The notes below the pieces were generated by a model. That model made no database searches, was not told where the DNA came from, and saw only the letters and a list, made by a program, of their open reading frames with translations. Positions 5,577 through 56,378 of a stretch of DNA of 64,000 bases are shown piece by piece. Each line of letters begins with the position of its first letter. Within the stretch, counting starts at the first letter, position 1. The translations under genes were made by a program, and so were the position numbers. Source of the stretch: Barthelona sp. PCE (lineage: Eukaryota); the NCBI GenBank assembly GCA_040285745.1, contig JAUFOR010000002.1, positions 1,364,001 to 1,428,000 of the forward strand, in the 5' to 3' direction.

Positions 5577-6277
5577 CCCAAAGTTGAAAATAAAGTGTAA
5601 TCAAGTGTTAAAAAAGTCAGAAAAAAACAGAGAAAGAGGTCTTTATAAAAGAAGTAAATGTATTTGTTCATATATAAGCTTTATTTCACGTGTGATATCA
5701 ACTATTGACTTTTCAATGTGATTTATGTCTTGAAATACATGTGTACCATTCATGAGTTAAAAAAAATTTACTTCAAAGTTATGCACTTATTCAATATCAA
5801 AAACCTTCTTTGAGTGATATACCTTAACTGAAATTTGTTACAAAGCCTTTTTTTAAAAAATAAAAAAAAGCAAAGTGGAGAAAGGTGCAAGAAGTTGAAC
5901 TTCAGTACTCTTTCATTAAAATTATTTTTTTGTACTCTCAAACTTTATACATACAGCAGTGAAGTGAACTTCTGATTGACATACTCGTTCATTCATCCAC
6001 TACTGATACCAATCACTAGAAGAAGTTGAAACTTATGCCGTGTCATTATGATGTCACTTCATTGCTGAAATATTGAACACCACTGTGTGGTATGCGTCAA
6101 TTTTTAAACCTACAGAAATTGTAATACCAATGCAGGGATATTTGTTCAATTCTTTTCTTCATATAAACCCAATAAACATGCCCACATACAAATATTACCC
6201 TAACTAAACCGAAGTAAAACTATTTATATACATTCAATGAATAAGTATTTGTTTAACCATTTCTATCTTCTTTCTAT

Positions 6278-13458: not shown

Positions 13459-13917
13459 ATGGGTATATTTACGGGCAGAAATTCGAATAAGAAACCTGTA
13501 GAGTACAGTCAACGAACAGAATACCTTCTTCTTACATACTTTAGAGCTTTATTCTTCATTATACCTATTTATAGCGTTATTTTAGCTTTATTTTTCATGG
13601 ATGAGTTCAGAAACAATACAATAATGCTTGCAGCAGTGGAATTGCTACTTCTTTTTCAAATGCGCACTGCTTATTATACTGGAAAACATTATGCAGTATT
13701 ATTCCAGGCCAAACTACTCCGTTTCTTCTGCATGTTTGTCCTTGTTGTCTTGGTAAAGAATCCTAATAGATGGTTGAGAGCATCTTTAGGTATGAATCTT
13801 ATGTTTTTATTACCCTTTGCTCAAGGTATGAAGGGGCTATGCTCTTCAAAAATTGCACACACAGATGCTGCAAAGTCTGTGAACGGGAATCCTAGCATTC
13901 TCGATAAGTTGGATTAG
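13459..13917 (+). CDS. Small multi-pass membrane protein (152 aa)
   Basis: ATG at 13459; about four hydrophobic segments. Confidence 0.65.
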   Translation: MGIFTGRNSNKKPVEYSQRTEYLLLTYFRALFFIIPIYSVILALFFMDEFRNNTIMLAAVELLLLFQMRTAYYTGKHYAVLFQAKLLRFFCMFVLVVLVKNPNRWLRASLGMNLMFLLPFAQGMKGLCSSKIAHTDAAKSVNGNPSILDKLD

Positions 13918-14088
13918 TTAACCTTTGTTTTTAATTTGTTTATAGCATCATATGTGTTCTTGATCGGACATTGGTATCCTGCGGTGAATTGTCCATGATG
14001 GTTATGAGATTTCATTAATTACATAGAAATCTTCTGTTTTCACCATGTGTAAAACAATAAACATAATACATCATCTCATGTTAGCTCG

Positions 14089-14313
14089 GCACGCTTGTGA
14101 ATAACACGCTATTTCGTAGGAGTAAATCTACTGAGGAGTAGACACGCGGTCTTCCCTCTTGTACTCTGTGAGTACTTACATCATTTCTTTCTCCCCTTTT
14201 ATTTTAAAAAAAAGGGCTCTAGAACAATTCTCAGTGCAAGCACAGCACTCGAGGGAGCTCGCAACTCCCGTACAAGTGTCTAACTCCGAAGTAAATTTAC
14301 AACCTCCTACGAA
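14089..14313 (-). repeat. Dispersed structured element, copy 1 (MITE-like or ncRNA-like; 225 bp)
   Basis: Reverse complement of 43036-43262 except for two 1-nt homopolymer indels. Inverted repeats ATTTCGTAGGAG (14111-14122) and CTCCTACGAAAT (14304-14315). Confidence 0.9.
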
Positions 14314-14909
14314 ATGGTTGATTTTCTTCCAGAGTCTCATCCATGTTAACGGGTAATAAAGGAAAGTAATCAGATTCTTTACAGAGATCTAAGTTCGGAT
14401 ATGGTGCCGCATACGGGCTACCTTCTTCAGAGTTTGGAAGTCCATACATCTGAAAAATAGTAGTATTTCAATTACTAAATAATACAATAAAATAAATAGG
14501 AAACCTTAAAATGGTGAGAAATTGAAATACACCCGCATACGTTCTATTCCATTCTCTGTTCAAAATCAATTACAGGATCATCCTGATCAGGACCAATACA
14601 TTTGTCATCAAAATTGGTCTTTATTAGTTTGTTACATACATATACAACAACCAGCGTTCCATTTAACTGATCTTGTTTCACCTGATAGACGTTTGTATTT
14701 CACCATAGTCCCTAAAACTCTCGATTCAAGATAATTTGTGATCAAATACTTTAAATTACCCTGAAAATGAGATGAAAATAAAAAAACTCTAGTATGGTCT
14801 TCTATTCATACAGTTTCATATCAAATCGAACTATATGTGGGAATTTATCCTTATAAAAACACTTAAACCATGTGTAAATAGTATTATCAGTTTTCTTCAC
14901 CAGTTCTTA

Positions 14910-43035: not shown

Positions 43036-43262
43036 TTCGTAGGAGGTTGTAAATTTACTTCGGAGTTAGACACTTGTACGGGAGTTGCGAGCTCCCTCGA
43101 GTGCTGTGCTTGCACTGAGAATTGTTCTAGAGCCCCTTTTTTTTAAAATAAAAGGGGGAGAAAGAAATGATGTAAGTACTCACAGAGTACAAGAGGGAAG
43201 ACCGCGTGTCTACTCCTCAGTAGATTTACTCCTACGAAATAGCGTGTTATTCACAAGCGTGC
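43036..43262 (+). repeat. Dispersed structured element, copy 2 (227 bp)
   Basis: Near-identical inverted copy of 14089-14313; sits in the intergenic space 15 bp from the stop of the CMTR2-like gene. Confidence 0.9.
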
Positions 43263-43277
43263 TTCAACAAAATGATT

Positions 43278-45716
43278 TTACTCGTGAAGAACGTCTGGGA
43301 GCTGACTCATATGTGCGTACAACTTTGTCAATAAATCATGGTTATACTTCAAAATAGTCTTCATAAAACTCGAGTGCTCCAAAATAATGGAGTGATGAAC
43401 CAAACTATACGGTCCAAGCTTCTTATGTTTCGTCCTCGAATGGATCTCATTCACGCGAATTACGCCAGCTTCAAGATAACTCTTGAGATTAGCAAGCTGT
43501 TTCAGCAAAATTGGGGAAGGTACAAGTGAAATAACAAATAAAGTCTCAAAATTGAACGCAAACGATGACTTGGGCTTCATTAATACTGATCTGGTTGCGA
43601 TACTGGACATTAAAAAGATGAAACTCACATAAAAGAATGTGAAGGAATATGGTAGTCTGAAAACAACCGTTGTATTCTGTTTATGCATCATCCTGATGCT
43701 CATTGACCGGTGAAGCATATCGATAATTGTCTTAAGATAGTGCAAAAGCGCAGTATTATTGTGGAACGCCGACTTGGGGTTCACACCCTTCACAACGTCC
43801 AGTTTACCGTTTGTGAGATCCACAACAATGGTGTCCACGTCGAGAGAGTCTCCCTCCGCAGCGCTCTCCTTGAACAGGAAGTATTTTTGAAAAATATCCG
43901 GTGAAAGAATCTTTGCAAAAACATGTGGCCATCCCTTGGGCCTAAACTCCCGATCAATGGGCTCAACTGCTGACAGGGGGTACGTGTATCCAACCGTCTG
44001 TCCGGTTGCAACTTGTCCGTGGATATCACGCATGAACTGTCGGTACTTACTTCGCAGTCTTGTGAAATCGTCTCTGTTTGTGACATTGTCGGGTTTAAGC
44101 GCGTTCTGACACATGTGAACGTTCTCTATAAGCTGGTTGAGAGTGATACCCTGCATTCCAAGGAAGCGGGAAGAGCGAGGGACGCTCGGTACATATCCGA
44201 TCTGTAATCCTTCCCATTCATCGAAGTTCACAATATCCACCGTGCTCCCTGTCGCAATAAAAGCAGCAGAAAGATCGTCAGAGAATATTGTCTGCTTCAC
44301 ATCATAGTTCTCTAATACCGTTATTATAGACTGACGAAGCACCTTCAGGTCTCTAAATGCATCGATGTCAGATAGAGCCGGGGGTGTGAGGGCACGTGGC
44401 GGACTTGGATAACCAAACTGAGTTTTCAACATCAGTGAGTTAACAATAGGCACCTTATATTTCGCTAAAAACAACGATGCACATTTCTCGAGGCCAGCAT
44501 GCACAGCGTGGATATTGAGAATAACACCATTAAGAGCTTTGAGTGATGCGTCGGTGAATTGCAGCTGCCTCTTGAGAATCGACTGAAAAATCGATGAATA
44601 AGCCTTCAAAAAGACATCCTGCATACTCCCTGCCGGATACAACATGCGACCTATGTCGTTCTTGTAGAATACAAACTTCAGAAAGTCGATAATGCGACTT
44701 GGAATGTTGCGGAATCCCTGCGCGACAACAAAGCACTCACTAGAGACTGGATGAGACGCGGTGGGTTTGACGATACTCACGTTCGTAAACGCACGCCAGA
44801 TATAATACAGAAGAGAGACGGTTGAATCGTGGAACATCGTTGTCAGCTTCAGAATCAGAGTTCCCTCGGAATTAAGGCATGAAAACGCAAGGAGCACCTG
44901 TGCCCATACAAGAGATATGTTTTCCTCCTCCGAAGAACCCATGACTCCGTCGGCAGTTATCATATCAACCGAATAACTCGGAAAACTCTTAAAATTATAC
45001 TGGTCAAGAAGGTTTCCGGTCCCGTCCGCCAAGAAGTCCCAGTTCTGAGGCCTACTCACCATGAGCACGTCCGAGACGCAATCCTTCTGTTTGGTACACT
45101 CATTGAGCGTATTGTAACTGACAGCCTTCCACTTCCACAGTCCGCGTGACTGGCGTCCCATACCCATGTTTCTCTGCTCGTGCTCAACCGCCATCGACGG
45201 CCTCTCTGTGTCCACAATGTGGTTTATGGCAAGAACGAAATCACCGGGGCCTTCACAAAGATGAAGGGTCGAAAAAATTTCCTTGTTGACTGGGACCACC
45301 TGAGGGTAGTGTTTGAGGATCTCATACATCTTCAGAAACGAGTGGCCGGACTGGATCATTTCACACTGGGTGCAACGATCCAAAAGACGAAATTGACAAA
45401 CGTCAATATGGCTAACAATCTCTGCCCAACGCTGCGGGTCCTGCTCGAGTATCTCCTCCCTCATTGTGTGATACTTCTCCTTTTGAGCTTGAATCTCACC
45501 ATGACCTATTGAACTGATACTAGAAACTGAATCAAAATCAAAGGATGCGTATTCACCATTCTGGAACGAGGGGAGGAAGCTAAGTTCATCCAGCGTGAAT
45601 GGTTGACTTTGTGGAAACTCGTGGTGTGAAGCAGTAAAAACTGTTGGCATCACTACACGATTACCCCTATCCCGGATATACTCTCTGTGCCGCGTGCTGA
45701 GTGTAAGCGGCTCCAT
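43278..45716 (-). CDS. CMTR2: FtsJ/RrmJ-type cap-specific mRNA 2'-O-methyltransferase, CMTR2-like
   Basis: LKMYEIL, LHLCEGPGDFVLAINH, ITADG, LILKL, KPTASHPVSSECFVVAQGF (K-D-K-E tetrad); degenerate second MTase-like segment at the C-terminus. Confidence 0.8.
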   Translation of the reverse strand: MEPLTLSTRHREYIRDRGNRVVMPTVFTASHHEFPQSQPFTLDELSFLPSFQNGEYASFDFDSVSSISSIGHGEIQAQKEKYHTMREEILEQDPQRWAEIVSHIDVCQFRLLDRCTQCEMIQSGHSFLKMYEILKHYPQVVPVNKEIFSTLHLCEGPGDFVLAINHIVDTERPSMAVEHEQRNMGMGRQSRGLWKWKAVSYNTLNECTKQKDCVSDVLMVSRPQNWDFLADGTGNLLDQYNFKSFPSYSVDMITADGVMGSSEEENISLVWAQVLLAFSCLNSEGTLILKLTTMFHDSTVSLLYYIWRAFTNVSIVKPTASHPVSSECFVVAQGFRNIPSRIIDFLKFVFYKNDIGRMLYPAGSMQDVFLKAYSSIFQSILKRQLQFTDASLKALNGVILNIHAVHAGLEKCASLFLAKYKVPIVNSLMLKTQFGYPSPPRALTPPALSDIDAFRDLKVLRQSIITVLENYDVKQTIFSDDLSAAFIATGSTVDIVNFDEWEGLQIGYVPSVPRSSRFLGMQGITLNQLIENVHMCQNALKPDNVTNRDDFTRLRSKYRQFMRDIHGQVATGQTVGYTYPLSAVEPIDREFRPKGWPHVFAKILSPDIFQKYFLFKESAAEGDSLDVDTIVVDLTNGKLDVVKGVNPKSAFHNNTALLHYLKTIIDMLHRSMSIRMMHKQNTTVVFRLPYSFTFFYVSFIFLMSSIATRSVLMKPKSSFAFNFETLFVISLVPSPILLKQLANLKSYLEAGVIRVNEIHSRTKHKKLGPYSLVHHSIILEHSSFMKTILKYNHDLLTKLYAHMSQLPDVLHE

Positions 45717-53177: not shown

Positions 53178-56100
53178 ATGATTTTCAAAGCACAGTTTTT
53201 AGCAATTCTGATGCTTTTTATCTCTGTGGGTTTTGCTCAACAGACTATAAAAGCACATCTAATTGCACATACGCACAATGACCCGGGGTGGCTACGTTCC
53301 CTGAACGAGTACTACAATAGTGAGACGAAGCCAATCCTCAACAGTATCGTGAGCGCCTTAAAGAAGGATCCAAAGCGTAAGTTTAATTGGAACCCTGCTG
53401 TCTTCTTAGAGAAGTACTGGAACGATCTCAACGCACACCAGAAAGAAGAATTCCGTACGCTTGTACAAGAAAAACGATTCTGCATTGGCGGAGGTGGTTG
53501 GGTAGCAAATGATGAAGCAACTGTTGATTTACAGGGCATTGTCACGCAGTACACTAACGGCCACACATGGCTAAAGGATACCTTTGATATCGTACCGAAA
53601 TCAGCATGGCAAATTGACTCATTTGGTCATTCTTCATTCATGCCTTCTGTTCTCAGTCATATGAACATTCCGTTCATGGTTGGCAACAGGATTGACTTCC
53701 GCGTCCGTGATAGGTTGAAGGAACTCGGTTCTATGGAGTTTATATGGGAAGGTAATGATTTGCTCGGTAAGAAAAGTAGAATCGTTATTCATCTACTCTA
53801 CCATCACTATTCGTCGCCGGATGGCTTCGACTTCGAGAAGGGTTGGCACACAGTCACGGATTCGAACGTTCGTAACATGGCACACAATCTAGTTGAAGAG
53901 ATCAAGAGAAGAAAGGCAAAGTACCCCACTGACAATGTTTTGATTGTTGCAGGAGAGGATTTCCGATACAAGCATGCCGAAAAGCAGTTTGATAACTGGG
54001 ACAAATTGATCAAGTATATCAATTCTAACAAGAAGGAGTACAACGTTGAGATCGGTTGGAGTTCGCTTGAGGAGTACTATAAGGCTATTGTAGACTCGAA
54101 GGATAAGCTCCCTGTTGTAAGCTATGACTTTATGCCGTACATTTCCAGCGACGACTTCATCTGGACTGGCTACTATACCACTGCTCCTCGTCTGAAGGGG
54201 GTCATGCGTGAAGTGCAGGGTGCTCTGCGCACGACAGAGCACGCAGCCACCGTCGCACTTATGAAGGGCCACAAATCTATGCATGATTCCTTTATGAAGG
54301 ATATCGTCAACACTCGTAACCAAGTTGGTCTTGTCCAGCACCATGATGCGGCCACGGGTACCGCCAGGAAGCATGTGCGCGATGATTATGTGCACCGCCT
54401 TGGTGATTCTGTCAAGAAAACCGAGCAGGTCTCACGTGAGGCCGTCAGCGCTCTATTTAAGGGTTTTAAGGTCCATAACAAGAACGATAAGAATACTTGT
54501 GAGCACGGTATGATGTGCCCGGTTGTTGTACAGAACCCCATGGGGTGGAAGCGCAAGAACGTGGTGAGCATCAAAGTTGAAGCTGATAAGAAGTTCAAGG
54601 TCACAACGGAGACAGGCGTCAAGGTATCAAGCCAGTTCTGCCTAGGCCCTGATAACTGCTATGTTGAGTTTGTCGCTGAGGTTGTGGGCTTTGGATTCCG
54701 TACATATTTCCTGCAGCAAGACAGCGACACTACAACATTGAATCTCTCTGAGGTTCCCAACAAGAGCTCATTCAAGGTGGAGACCGAAGACATGGTTGTG
54801 CACTTTGGAAACCACGGTTTCATTAGATCAGTTGAGAACAAGCACCTCAATAAGGCCATAGATCTGGGAATGACGTACATGGAGTACTCGACACATAGAT
54901 CGGGTGCGTATCTGTTCAGACCAACGGGCGAGCCCCACGATCACCATGAGCTGGGCAACCTTCACAGCATGAAGCACGTTGAGACCGAGAACTTGCACAT
55001 TGTCAAGCTTGACAGATCATCTCTAAAAACTGAATTCCGCATTCCCAAGCGTGGATTTGCGATCCGTGTCCACACGACGCTCAGTGCTGGTTCTAACAAG
55101 GAGGTAATTATCAAGTTCAAGACTGATATCAATACGCAGAACAACTTCCACACTGACAACGGTGTGTCTCTCAAGGAGCGTGTCTGTACTAAGCAGAGTG
55201 GTCTCTATATCAGCTCTCAGTATTTCCCGTCAACAACGCAAACATCAATATACGGAGATCGCAACGGTCTTGTGCTTGGGTTCCGCCAACCCCATGGTGT
55301 TTCTCACCGTCACAAGGGTGAAGTAGAGGTTATGCTTCACAGAAACCTGAGACAGGATGATTCACTTGGTCTTGCCGAGGGTCACCGAGACCAGTCGACT
55401 GTGACTCTCAAGATGCTCGTCCAGCCTGTATGGACTCGTAAAGAGCAGGTTGTGAAGCCAGCAATGAGCTATTTCGATGAGTCCATGGACGTTTTCGATA
55501 TGAGATCTGCACTGTTGTTCAACAACCCTATGCGAGCACACCCAAGCTCCGATGCTTTCCCCTCGTTCGAAGCTTACCACCAAAGCCACCCCTTCTCGCT
55601 GTCGCCCATTGACGTGAGTGGTATCAGCCCCAACCTTCATATTTTCTCTTTCGACATCTTCAAGAAGGGTGATAACCCACAAATCGCACTTCGTGTACGT
55701 AACATCGCCCATAATAAGGGTGGAACTGCCACTCTGTCGATCAAGAACATGGTCACGCCACTTGGTAAGATCAAAGCTCTTAAAGAAGTCGGACTGAATC
55801 TCGTATCGGACCGTGAAGGCGATGTCAACGGTTATGTTCTCCCCGAAAGCGATGGCTATCTTCAGATTCCCAGCGGAATCAAGAGCGGTAGCAGAGGCAG
55901 CATCAAGCATCACAAGAAGGATATCAACCATCCTGCGCCTGATGCCATGCCCGTCTCAAACGGTGAGGTTTCCATCGCCCCGCAGGACCTGCGCGCATTT
56001 ATTATTACTGTAGAGCCTCACTTTAGTGGGAAGCCCGATACTGGAATCGGTGGAATCACACCTGAGCCTACGCATCCGGTCCAGCCAACGGAGCCTACGC

Positions 56101-56378
56101 AACCCACGCATCCGGTCCAGCCAACGGAGCCAACACAGCCCACGGAGCCCTCACACCCTGAACCCACGCAACCAATGACCGGAGACGTGTTGGTCCACAT
56201 CCCCCCTCATCCTAGTTTGAAGCAAGAGGTAACGGGGCAGACTAAGGGAATGATCACGGCTGACATGATCATCGCCACCCTCCTCAGTGTGGGTGCAATG
56301 CTTGCTCTGAGTCTTATGTTTGTTTTGTTCAGGACAAGTGCACAGCATTCAAAGAAGCAAGAGAAATTCACTCTTTAA
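53178..56378 (+). CDS. GH38 alpha-mannosidase with signal peptide, Pro/Thr stalk and C-terminal TM helix
   Basis: HTHNDPGW, GGGWVANDEA, WQIDSFGHS, GEDF, WTGYYTT, QHHDAATGT, EVMLHR...DDSLGL. Confidence 0.95.
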   Translation: MIFKAQFLAILMLFISVGFAQQTIKAHLIAHTHNDPGWLRSLNEYYNSETKPILNSIVSALKKDPKRKFNWNPAVFLEKYWNDLNAHQKEEFRTLVQEKRFCIGGGGWVANDEATVDLQGIVTQYTNGHTWLKDTFDIVPKSAWQIDSFGHSSFMPSVLSHMNIPFMVGNRIDFRVRDRLKELGSMEFIWEGNDLLGKKSRIVIHLLYHHYSSPDGFDFEKGWHTVTDSNVRNMAHNLVEEIKRRKAKYPTDNVLIVAGEDFRYKHAEKQFDNWDKLIKYINSNKKEYNVEIGWSSLEEYYKAIVDSKDKLPVVSYDFMPYISSDDFIWTGYYTTAPRLKGVMREVQGALRTTEHAATVALMKGHKSMHDSFMKDIVNTRNQVGLVQHHDAATGTARKHVRDDYVHRLGDSVKKTEQVSREAVSALFKGFKVHNKNDKNTCEHGMMCPVVVQNPMGWKRKNVVSIKVEADKKFKVTTETGVKVSSQFCLGPDNCYVEFVAEVVGFGFRTYFLQQDSDTTTLNLSEVPNKSSFKVETEDMVVHFGNHGFIRSVENKHLNKAIDLGMTYMEYSTHRSGAYLFRPTGEPHDHHELGNLHSMKHVETENLHIVKLDRSSLKTEFRIPKRGFAIRVHTTLSAGSNKEVIIKFKTDINTQNNFHTDNGVSLKERVCTKQSGLYISSQYFPSTTQTSIYGDRNGLVLGFRQPHGVSHRHKGEVEVMLHRNLRQDDSLGLAEGHRDQSTVTLKMLVQPVWTRKEQVVKPAMSYFDESMDVFDMRSALLFNNPMRAHPSSDAFPSFEAYHQSHPFSLSPIDVSGISPNLHIFSFDIFKKGDNPQIALRVRNIAHNKGGTATLSIKNMVTPLGKIKALKEVGLNLVSDREGDVNGYVLPESDGYLQIPSGIKSGSRGSIKHHKKDINHPAPDAMPVSNGEVSIAPQDLRAFIITVEPHFSGKPDTGIGGITPEPTHPVQPTEPTQPTHPVQPTEPTQPTEPSHPEPTQPMTGDVLVHIPPHPSLKQEVTGQTKGMITADMIIATLLSVGAMLALSLMFVLFRTSAQHSKKQEKFTL
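56061..56174 (+). repeat. Coding tandem repeat (PTHPVQPTEPTQ, 36-bp period) in the mannosidase stalk
   Basis: 26-bp identity between 56070-56095 and 56106-56131, plus degenerate PTEP/PTQP units. Confidence 0.9.

Follow-up and report, generated by a model that had tools for sequence, protein, structure and literature searches.

The short element SIRE of Trypanosoma cruzi is the A2-B2 region of the tyrosine recombinase (YR) retrotransposon VIPER, and the cited sections of the report on it leave open its own mobility and the autonomous movement of SIRE-like units (PMC6681497). The priming of reverse transcription and the integration of YR retrotransposons are poorly understood. VIPER and TATE show no target-site duplication (TSD) according to the available part of PMC12278014. 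The Ngaro retrotransposons of Cafeteria burkhardae also occur as solo AB repeats, ascribed to recombination in the relevant passages of PMC8547959. Intermediates between split direct repeats and inverted ones had not been observed, as stated in an excerpt of PMC4157794, and according to the pertinent section of PMC7192593, the recombinase specificity of DIRS-1 had not been examined in experiments.

The element described here is explained in kind: it is most likely a SIRE-like A-B unit of a YR retrotransposon. It lies in a window, i.e., the whole stretch of 64,000 nucleotides analyzed, that is gene dense and eukaryotic, with eRF1, a dynein heavy chain, an IFT172/140-type protein, and others recognized by a Pfam scan of its open reading frames (ORFs); ∼10% of the window is outside long open frames. 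Barthelona is a genus of free-living metamonads. The host is a flagellated protist with a compact genome of 10.2 Mb in 8 contigs; in the protein database, proteins of the mobile elements treated below bear the label Barthelona.

Copies and insertion sites of family A

An earlier note on this DNA reported a near-identical pair of structured elements, and the pair is real: the two copies lie in inverted orientation ∼29 kb from each other, and the central T/A tract and one terminal base are their only differences. The note located the ends rightly apart from an offset of one base, corrected in Table 1, and with this shift the one-sided tail it had described is 26 nt rather than 24 nt long. Both copies exist, but the element is not merely present twice. 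The young, dispersed family to which they belong, here called family A, has at least 44 matches in the genome (40 of 44 candidates were scored), and a decayed third copy lies in the window. Among the matches, 22 are near full length at 95 to 100% identity, one more is split by an insertion, and the others are older or partial; an older copy used as the query leads to additional diverged loci. A comparison of copy 1 with 27 other aligned copies, with the T/A tract left aside, gives no difference in 15 of them, one base in 4, and three bases in 2. Loci L016 and L022 represent a single insertion event doubled by segmental duplication. The young copies uphold the description as a recently inserted, noncoding, multicopy mobile-element sequence, and a Pfam scan of the 30 longer ORFs of the window agrees that no transposase is encoded there. 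No family A match is found among 50,697 phage records or, with a 23-nt pattern of the element, in the metagenome contigs scanned.

Table 1. Positions of the family A units, their parts, and a neighboring repeat in the window
Feature	Position	Strand	Basis or remark
Decayed family A remnant	∼5764..5884	-	Family A profile, E 4.3e-10
Family A unit, copy 1, 225 nt	14088..14312	+	Order in retrotransposon sense is A-like part, T/A tract, B-like part; ends from distinct flanks (26 left, 19 right) and 5 empty-site events, A-B homology with family C
Unpaired 5' extension of 26 nt (the "tail" of the earlier note), read as 5' terminus of repeat A	14088..14113	+	26 exact and 32 total matches at ≤3 mismatches, control 0
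5' arm of closing stem (nt 27-58)	14114..14145	+	Local score 41 against reverse complement of 3' end, 0/500 shuffles; two-sided changes between subfamilies
Internal 6-bp hairpin	14161..14175	+	100% of cells paired; two-sided change in 3/6 pairs (alignment A3)
C/T-rich to A/G-rich hairpin over variable homopolymer tract, marking the putative A/B boundary	14194..14216	+	Same tract at A2/B2 boundary of family C
B-like part	14215..14312	+	Against family C B-part without homopolymer: z 3.2, 3/1000 shuffles
Two 5-bp internal hairpins	14233..14249, 14253..14269	+	Sequence; weak covariation support, 83% and 88% of cells paired
3' arm of closing stem, up to last base of element	14276..14312	+	28 matches at ≤3 mismatches, control 0
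Solo A-B unit of family B	14319..14595	-	6 nt from copy 1; identical to 3' unit of full-length RT/YR element, G000:C8:777533-783623
Family A unit, copy 2	43037..43263	-	First base unlike rest of family

The left flank of copy 1 does not consist of unique DNA; it is the end unit of another retrotransposon family, here called family B (Table 1). Copy 2 starts ∼15 nt past the stop codon of an FtsJ-family gene of the same sense (window 43263-43278) and may lie within the 3' untranslated region of that gene. Another copy, L004, shares 39 nt with the end of an open frame, and for L001-L023, crude ORF calls place the next downstream open frame in the sense of the element at 16 of the 20 copies with such a frame in range. 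A short tandem repeat is found at the end of the alpha-mannosidase ORF (window 56067-56156).

The ends of the element were fixed from tables of the distinct flanks, and both ends are recognized in 21 copies out of 30 loci examined. Six of these 21 copies have a paralogous empty site, corresponding to five independent events, all of them precise, with no duplication or loss and with a one-base ambiguity in one case. The empty sites bear out the absence of a TSD and the view that the element is not a classic MITE. Overlaps between the two flanks are at chance level, with none in 13 of 21 copies, one base in 7, and four bases in 1, compared to a series of 291, 89, 31, 5, and 4 in 420 mismatched pairs. 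Target preference is weak: of 26 distinct flanks, 18 have a T at the third base ahead of the 5' end (p 4e-4, 0.35 assumed); the bases adjoining the element vary (T12 A8 C5 G1 on one side and A8 G6 T4 C1 on the other). A family F element inserted in a family D element (L131:1750-8364) has a four-base core common to junction and target, in one event, but no such core match occurs in the five family A events or in an insertion of family C into family D. The absence of a core match in family A counts against the lost-parent explanation given below.

Nine of 23 young family A copies (L006, L008, L010, L012, L014, L017, L018, L020, and L021) are located inside or ≤30 nt from a unit of family B, C, D, or E, ∼10 times the rough expectation from the share of these units in intergenic DNA. 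This clustering may come from a preference for earlier elements as targets or from better survival of insertions where they do no harm. Families A and C nest mutually, A within C at L014 and C within A at L026, which makes the two contemporaneous.

Sister families and the identity of family A

Five families of the genome, B to F, are split-direct-repeat YR retrotransposons with the layout A1-gag-RT/RNase H/tyrosine recombinase-B1A2B2. Family B, first seen as the repeat flanking copy 1, has 47 genome matches. Family C was defined by an insertion within another family A copy and family D by the neighbor of a third copy, and families E and F show the same split-repeat layout as B to D. The A1/A2 and B1/B2 repeat pairs are 100% identical within elements of B, C, E, and F, and D also conforms to this layout. 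Besides serving as the 3' A2-B2 unit of ∼6-kb elements, the A-B end units of B, C, and D are found in isolation. There is one full-length copy in B, five in C, and six in D, giving full-length to solo ratios of ∼1:10, 5:12, and 6:3, respectively; the ∼10 solos of family B are near-identical. Older copies of family C that were examined (67 to 86%) are all short. At L084:7680-8060, a complete family C unit and a partial one, made up of A and 14 nt of B, are arranged head to tail without ORFs.

Full-length members of families B to F are seen at loci L087 (G000:C1:502599-508680), L132-L135, L094, L084-L092, L130, and L131, several of them with long open RT/RH/YR frames, and one copy of family C has an uninterrupted frame of 1388 codons. 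The first ORF has no Pfam match and is taken as gag by its position. RT is recognized in the long ORF by PF00078 with E of 1e-10 to 1e-14, and RNase H is recognized only by acidic residues conserved in alignment A5, which presumably represent its motif. The R-K-H-R-W-Y residues of the recombinase are invariant, with PF00589 matching only below the cutoff; its best match is Cre, at a profile E of 0.002 and a fold E of 4.6e-5 on a low-confidence model (pLDDT 52). The RT is ∼23 to 33% identical to the best matches from other organisms, and 43 of the 145 nearest nonself RT hits contain a methyltransferase motif of the DIRS/PAT type. A methyltransferase, which would make families B to F PAT-like, is at most a vestige in them: there is no Pfam hit, HMM scores are at most 2.5 bits, and a weak positional profile-profile match has an E of 0.076 and a probability of 0.7%. 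A literature search with poor coverage of subscription papers gave no paper on YR retrotransposons in metamonads among those listed.

Family A is very probably a sister of family C: an A-B end unit that stands alone, derived from a YR retrotransposon with split direct repeats. The assignment as an A-B unit follows from homology to the A-B unit of family C, with which family A, read from 14088 to 14312, aligns end to end at a z of 5.1 (0 of 300 shuffles), compared to z values of ≤1.6 in the other 9 of 10 comparisons. A family A profile gives 4.0 to 22.9 bits on all 11 nonredundant C copies against a maximum of 2.9 bits in 300 shuffles, with the highest values in three older C copies (16.5 to 22.9), and no score on B, D, E, and F. 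Over 60 A-C pairs, the mean z is 4.2, with controls at 0.3 to 0.9. This homology supports the "retro-type" option that the earlier note had named. It also reverses the direction in which the element was read, as the "tail" is the 5' end of repeat A.

The A/B boundary of family A would lie at the homopolymer tract. With this tract removed, the B-parts of A and C still match (3 of 1000 shuffles), and the A-parts do not do so significantly (z 0.8, 220 of 1000 shuffles). The B repeat of family C overlaps the last codons of the recombinase ORF, and the B-part of family A has 32 codons open in the frame used by C; of 8 diverged family A copies, 3 show no indels in this frame. Similarity of the B-part peptide to the YR tail of C is not significant (p 0.74), and codon-position tests give no clear coding constraint in A or in C. 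On these comparisons, the A-C homology is solid at the DNA level, yet distant, since the DNA-level match is significant and those of the A-part and the peptide are not.

The terminal fold-back

The interrupted closing stem that had been described for the element is present in the sequence and kept in predicted minimum-energy folds. Four internal hairpins had also been proposed; all can be found in the sequence, but only the C/T-A/G hairpin is kept in the minimum-energy folds, the others appearing in some folds only. Folding of both strands compared to shuffles gives z values of -6.1 and -7.5 as RNA and of -5.9 and -5.0 as DNA, reached by 0 of 200 shuffles each. The argument for one strand from G-U pairs fails, as wobble pairs occur on either strand in older copies.

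The reverse complement of the last ten bases finds its best match starting at nt 27 in family A, nt 28 in B, nt 30 in C, nt 27 in E, and nt 28 in F; D is without it. An offset of 26 to 29 nt is thus common to B, C, E, and F. This fold-back of the 3' terminus to nt 27 to 30 in five of six families, strongest in A, is a new observation. With A/C, B/E, and F counted as three lineages, the chance of a shared offset is ∼(4/70) squared, or 0.003, by rough arithmetic. The score of the closing stem is 41 in family A (0 of 500 shuffles) versus 16 to 22 in B to F (p at least 0.056). Two-sided changes are found in 18 cells over 16 family A copies (0 of 500 shuffles), including a swap of A-U and G-C between subfamilies. 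RNAalifold yields no consensus structure on the gappy family A alignment. The covariation is supportive only, because its control ignores relatedness, the structure was taken from one of the sequences, and RNAalifold gives no consensus.

The fold-back may reveal how such elements begin copying or mark their ends. The geometry of the stem suggests a self-primer or, alternatively, a folded recombinase site. A literature search gave no fold-back of this kind among the papers listed; supplements and the original Goodwin and Poulter papers may describe inverted repeats within split direct repeats.

Origin of the short units and known systems

The family A copies are best explained, if only just probably, as leftovers of a full-length parent that is now lost or unassembled. 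Following the published model, a parent of the form A1-gag-RT/RH/YR-B1-A2-B2 would be transcribed and then reverse-transcribed, with the internal B1/A2 joint as the template restoring both ends as a circle junction, and YR would insert the circle without target duplication. The short units would arise by A1 x A2 recombination after insertion, comparable to a solo LTR, or as A-B minicircles released by looping out from B1 to B2. The stem would be a cis signal inherited from the parent. It would pair the final base of B with nt 27 of A, the paired 3' end pointing to the 26-nt extension and the B1/A2 joint; in a full-length element, the paired 3' end would point on into B1 and the ORFs, a geometry fitting a self-primer for first-strand synthesis or a folded recombinase site.

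Counting against this route, the assembly contains no parent although, the T/A tract apart, copy 1 and more than half of the copies aligned with it do not differ at all. The head-to-tail B/A junction of family A has 0 matches in the assembly, and no pair among the matches to the two termini (32 for the 5' and 28 for the 3' terminus) encloses RT or YR genes. The 24 RT loci found all belong to families B to F, a subtelomeric RT group, or telomerase, in a search that is not exhaustive, since one broken D copy was missed. Queries with pol, YR, and gag of family C and pol of family B reveal no further (sixth) family in the genome. Tail-only and diverged family A matches, checked as ends of a long parent, adjoin host genes and not RT/YR ORFs. 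Full-length copies number 0 of 22 young insertions in A versus 5 of 17 in C (p 0.011); versus ∼1 of 11 in B, the probability is ∼0.12 by rough arithmetic, and the lack of a full-length copy in family A is not extreme given the one full-length copy to ∼10 solos of family B. The missing parent lowers the probability that the copies are solos of a parent still present, not that of the ancestry itself.

The RT locus at C3:20840 was rejected as telomerase. A 914-codon ORF at L164:3625-6366, with matches to RT and the telomerase RNA-binding domain, is the host TERT. A second RT family, in tandem and with frames of up to ∼1,500 codons, is seen at L165 and L166 (left end of G000:C8) and also near the ends of C1, C2, and C5; it is probably a subtelomeric non-LTR element.

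Another reading, somewhat less likely, is that the A-B unit spreads without a parent. Here, a nonautonomous mini-element with a reinforced stem would be excised or copied by the RT/YR of family C or a relative, circularize at B/A, and insert. Family A forms the largest young burst among the families counted, with neither parent nor junction in the 8-contig assembly, and its diverged relatives examined are all short, with no adjoining RT/YR ORF. The far stronger stem with its two-sided changes would fit such a unit, as would a contemporaneous family C with five full-length copies, one of them with the 1388-codon frame. Yet a bare A-B unit lacks the B1/A2 template required by the published cycle, and the recombinase of C may not recognize A because the units of A and C are only distantly alike. 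The full-length to solo ratios vary widely among families, the B-part frame has stayed free of indels in some diverged copies, and the covariation is subject to the limits given above; the mobility of SIRE is itself open in the cited part of PMC6681497. A more specific variant, in which family A is a currently spreading bare unit moved in trans by a sister RT/YR via the fold-back of the last base to nt 27, and in which the same fold-back in five of six families is a self-primer or folded recombination site, is rather unlikely. If true, these elements would combine split direct repeats with termini that are beginning to be inverted and a 26-nt extension, and their layout would fall between those of PAT/Ngaro and DIRS.

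Explanations outside the YR retrotransposons fare worse. In the direction of the earlier note, the element starts with a 5' T and a terminal inverted repeat whose partner lies ∼25 nt short of the 3' end, a layout that resembles a nonautonomous HUH rolling-circle element of the Helitron2/Helentron type. The available text of PMC3627910 describes such asymmetric terminal inverted repeats, with the 5' repeat 0 to 2 bp and the 3' repeat 20 to 30 bp from the end, a 5' T, and no TSD. Even so, this origin is very unlikely. The T/T or A/T target, a rule given for HLE2 in the cited section of PMC11417382, is not seen, no clear 3' or 5' terminal hairpin is present, and sister units of the same layout are demonstrably the ends of RT/YR elements. 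Mobility of the HUH or IS200-605 kind, as the note had suggested, receives no backing from the genome: PF14214 (RepHel, 0 candidates genome-wide), PF21859, and PF01797 are without a match, a weak result for PF14214 and PF21859, whose controls are also silent, and the single PIF1 match is a 700-amino-acid host Pif1 helicase without a Rep domain.

The strong folding and some covariation would also suit a multicopy gene for a structured noncoding RNA or an omega-RNA-like scaffold with the variable flank as guide, an idea raised by the note that is now highly improbable. No TnpB/Fanzor zinc-ribbon family matches genome-wide (controls positive in 8 of 14), and Rfam gives no match for the whole window at the gathering threshold or for 13900-14700 at E up to 1. 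The copies interrupt other repeats precisely, are interrupted themselves, and decay, and their wobble pairs favor neither strand. Least credible of all is a MITE of a DDE transposon or a derivative of a Replitron or IS200/605 element, although the element is short and multicopy and has inverted repeats. One of these repeats does not reach its end of the element, flank overlaps match chance, and the MITE is refuted by the empty sites. A Replitron would be expected to show terminal direct repeats, an RG target, or fuzzy ends, going by the cited portion of PMC10288648, and none of these is found; the silent-control and negative results for PF21859 and PF01797 apply here too; the transposase families searched genome-wide were those of Helitrons, Replitrons, IS200, and TnpB. 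A multicopy ORF family of ∼750 amino acids (L051, L052, L054, and L097-L099), tried as a transposase, has no significant Pfam match and no recognized catalytic motif and is not bracketed by element ends. This protein family is lineage specific, and units of the repeats described here often lie beside its members.

Should the copies be mere leftovers, as the lost-parent explanation has it, they amount to an ordinary solo repeat and document YR retrotransposons for a lineage of metamonads. In this small genome, full-length members exist for five sister families, insertions are nested and have exact empty sites, and one family has undergone a large recent burst while lacking a parent, which makes both the priming and integration of YR retrotransposons and the movement of SIRE-like units directly testable. 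The conserved fold-back is a specific structure to mutate. Together with the missing parent, this conserved and here reinforced terminal structure makes family A a variant worth testing.

Compared with known systems, family A resembles Helitron2/Helentron elements in its asymmetric terminal inverted repeats, the 5' T in the note's orientation, and the lack of a TSD, as these are outlined in the parts cited of PMC3627910, PMC5148889, and PMC11417382, but it has no T/T target or clear terminal hairpins, and no RepHel is found in the host genome; the resemblance is best read as convergence. DIRS-1-like elements have inverted terminal repeats whose outer ends are not identical, together with an internal complementary region (ICR). 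With them, family A shares ends that are partly inverted copies with an unpaired extension and a tendency, reported for DIRS-1, to insert into earlier copies. DIRS-1 differs, as far as the cited section of PMC7192593 goes, in that the internal junction copy in B to F is direct and not complementary, family A has no ICR, and no trinucleotide core is found at the copies; by inspection, no complement of the 5' extension occurs inside the family A unit. PAT-like elements have split direct repeats as well, in contrast to which the sister elements are without a significant methyltransferase match (excerpt of PMC4157794). The Ngaro elements of Cafeteria are ∼6-kb A1-ORFs-B1A2B2 elements whose isolated AB repeats are likewise scattered in a protist genome; they differ in that the passages cited mention no A-B inverted repeat, YR is a separate ORF3, and the parents are present (PMC8547959). 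In the sister elements, RT, RH, and YR follow in that order in one ORF, whereas VIPER has YR and RT/RH in overlapping ORFs. SIRE measures ∼435 bp (185+30+220) and shares its genome with VIPER, whereas the 225 bp of family A fold end to end, and the assembly contains no parent for them. According to the cited parts of PMC6681497 and PMC12278014, the two are nonetheless alike as short, dispersed, noncoding A-B units of a split-direct-repeat YR retrotransposon with no TSD, and they pose the same question of mobile element or remnant.
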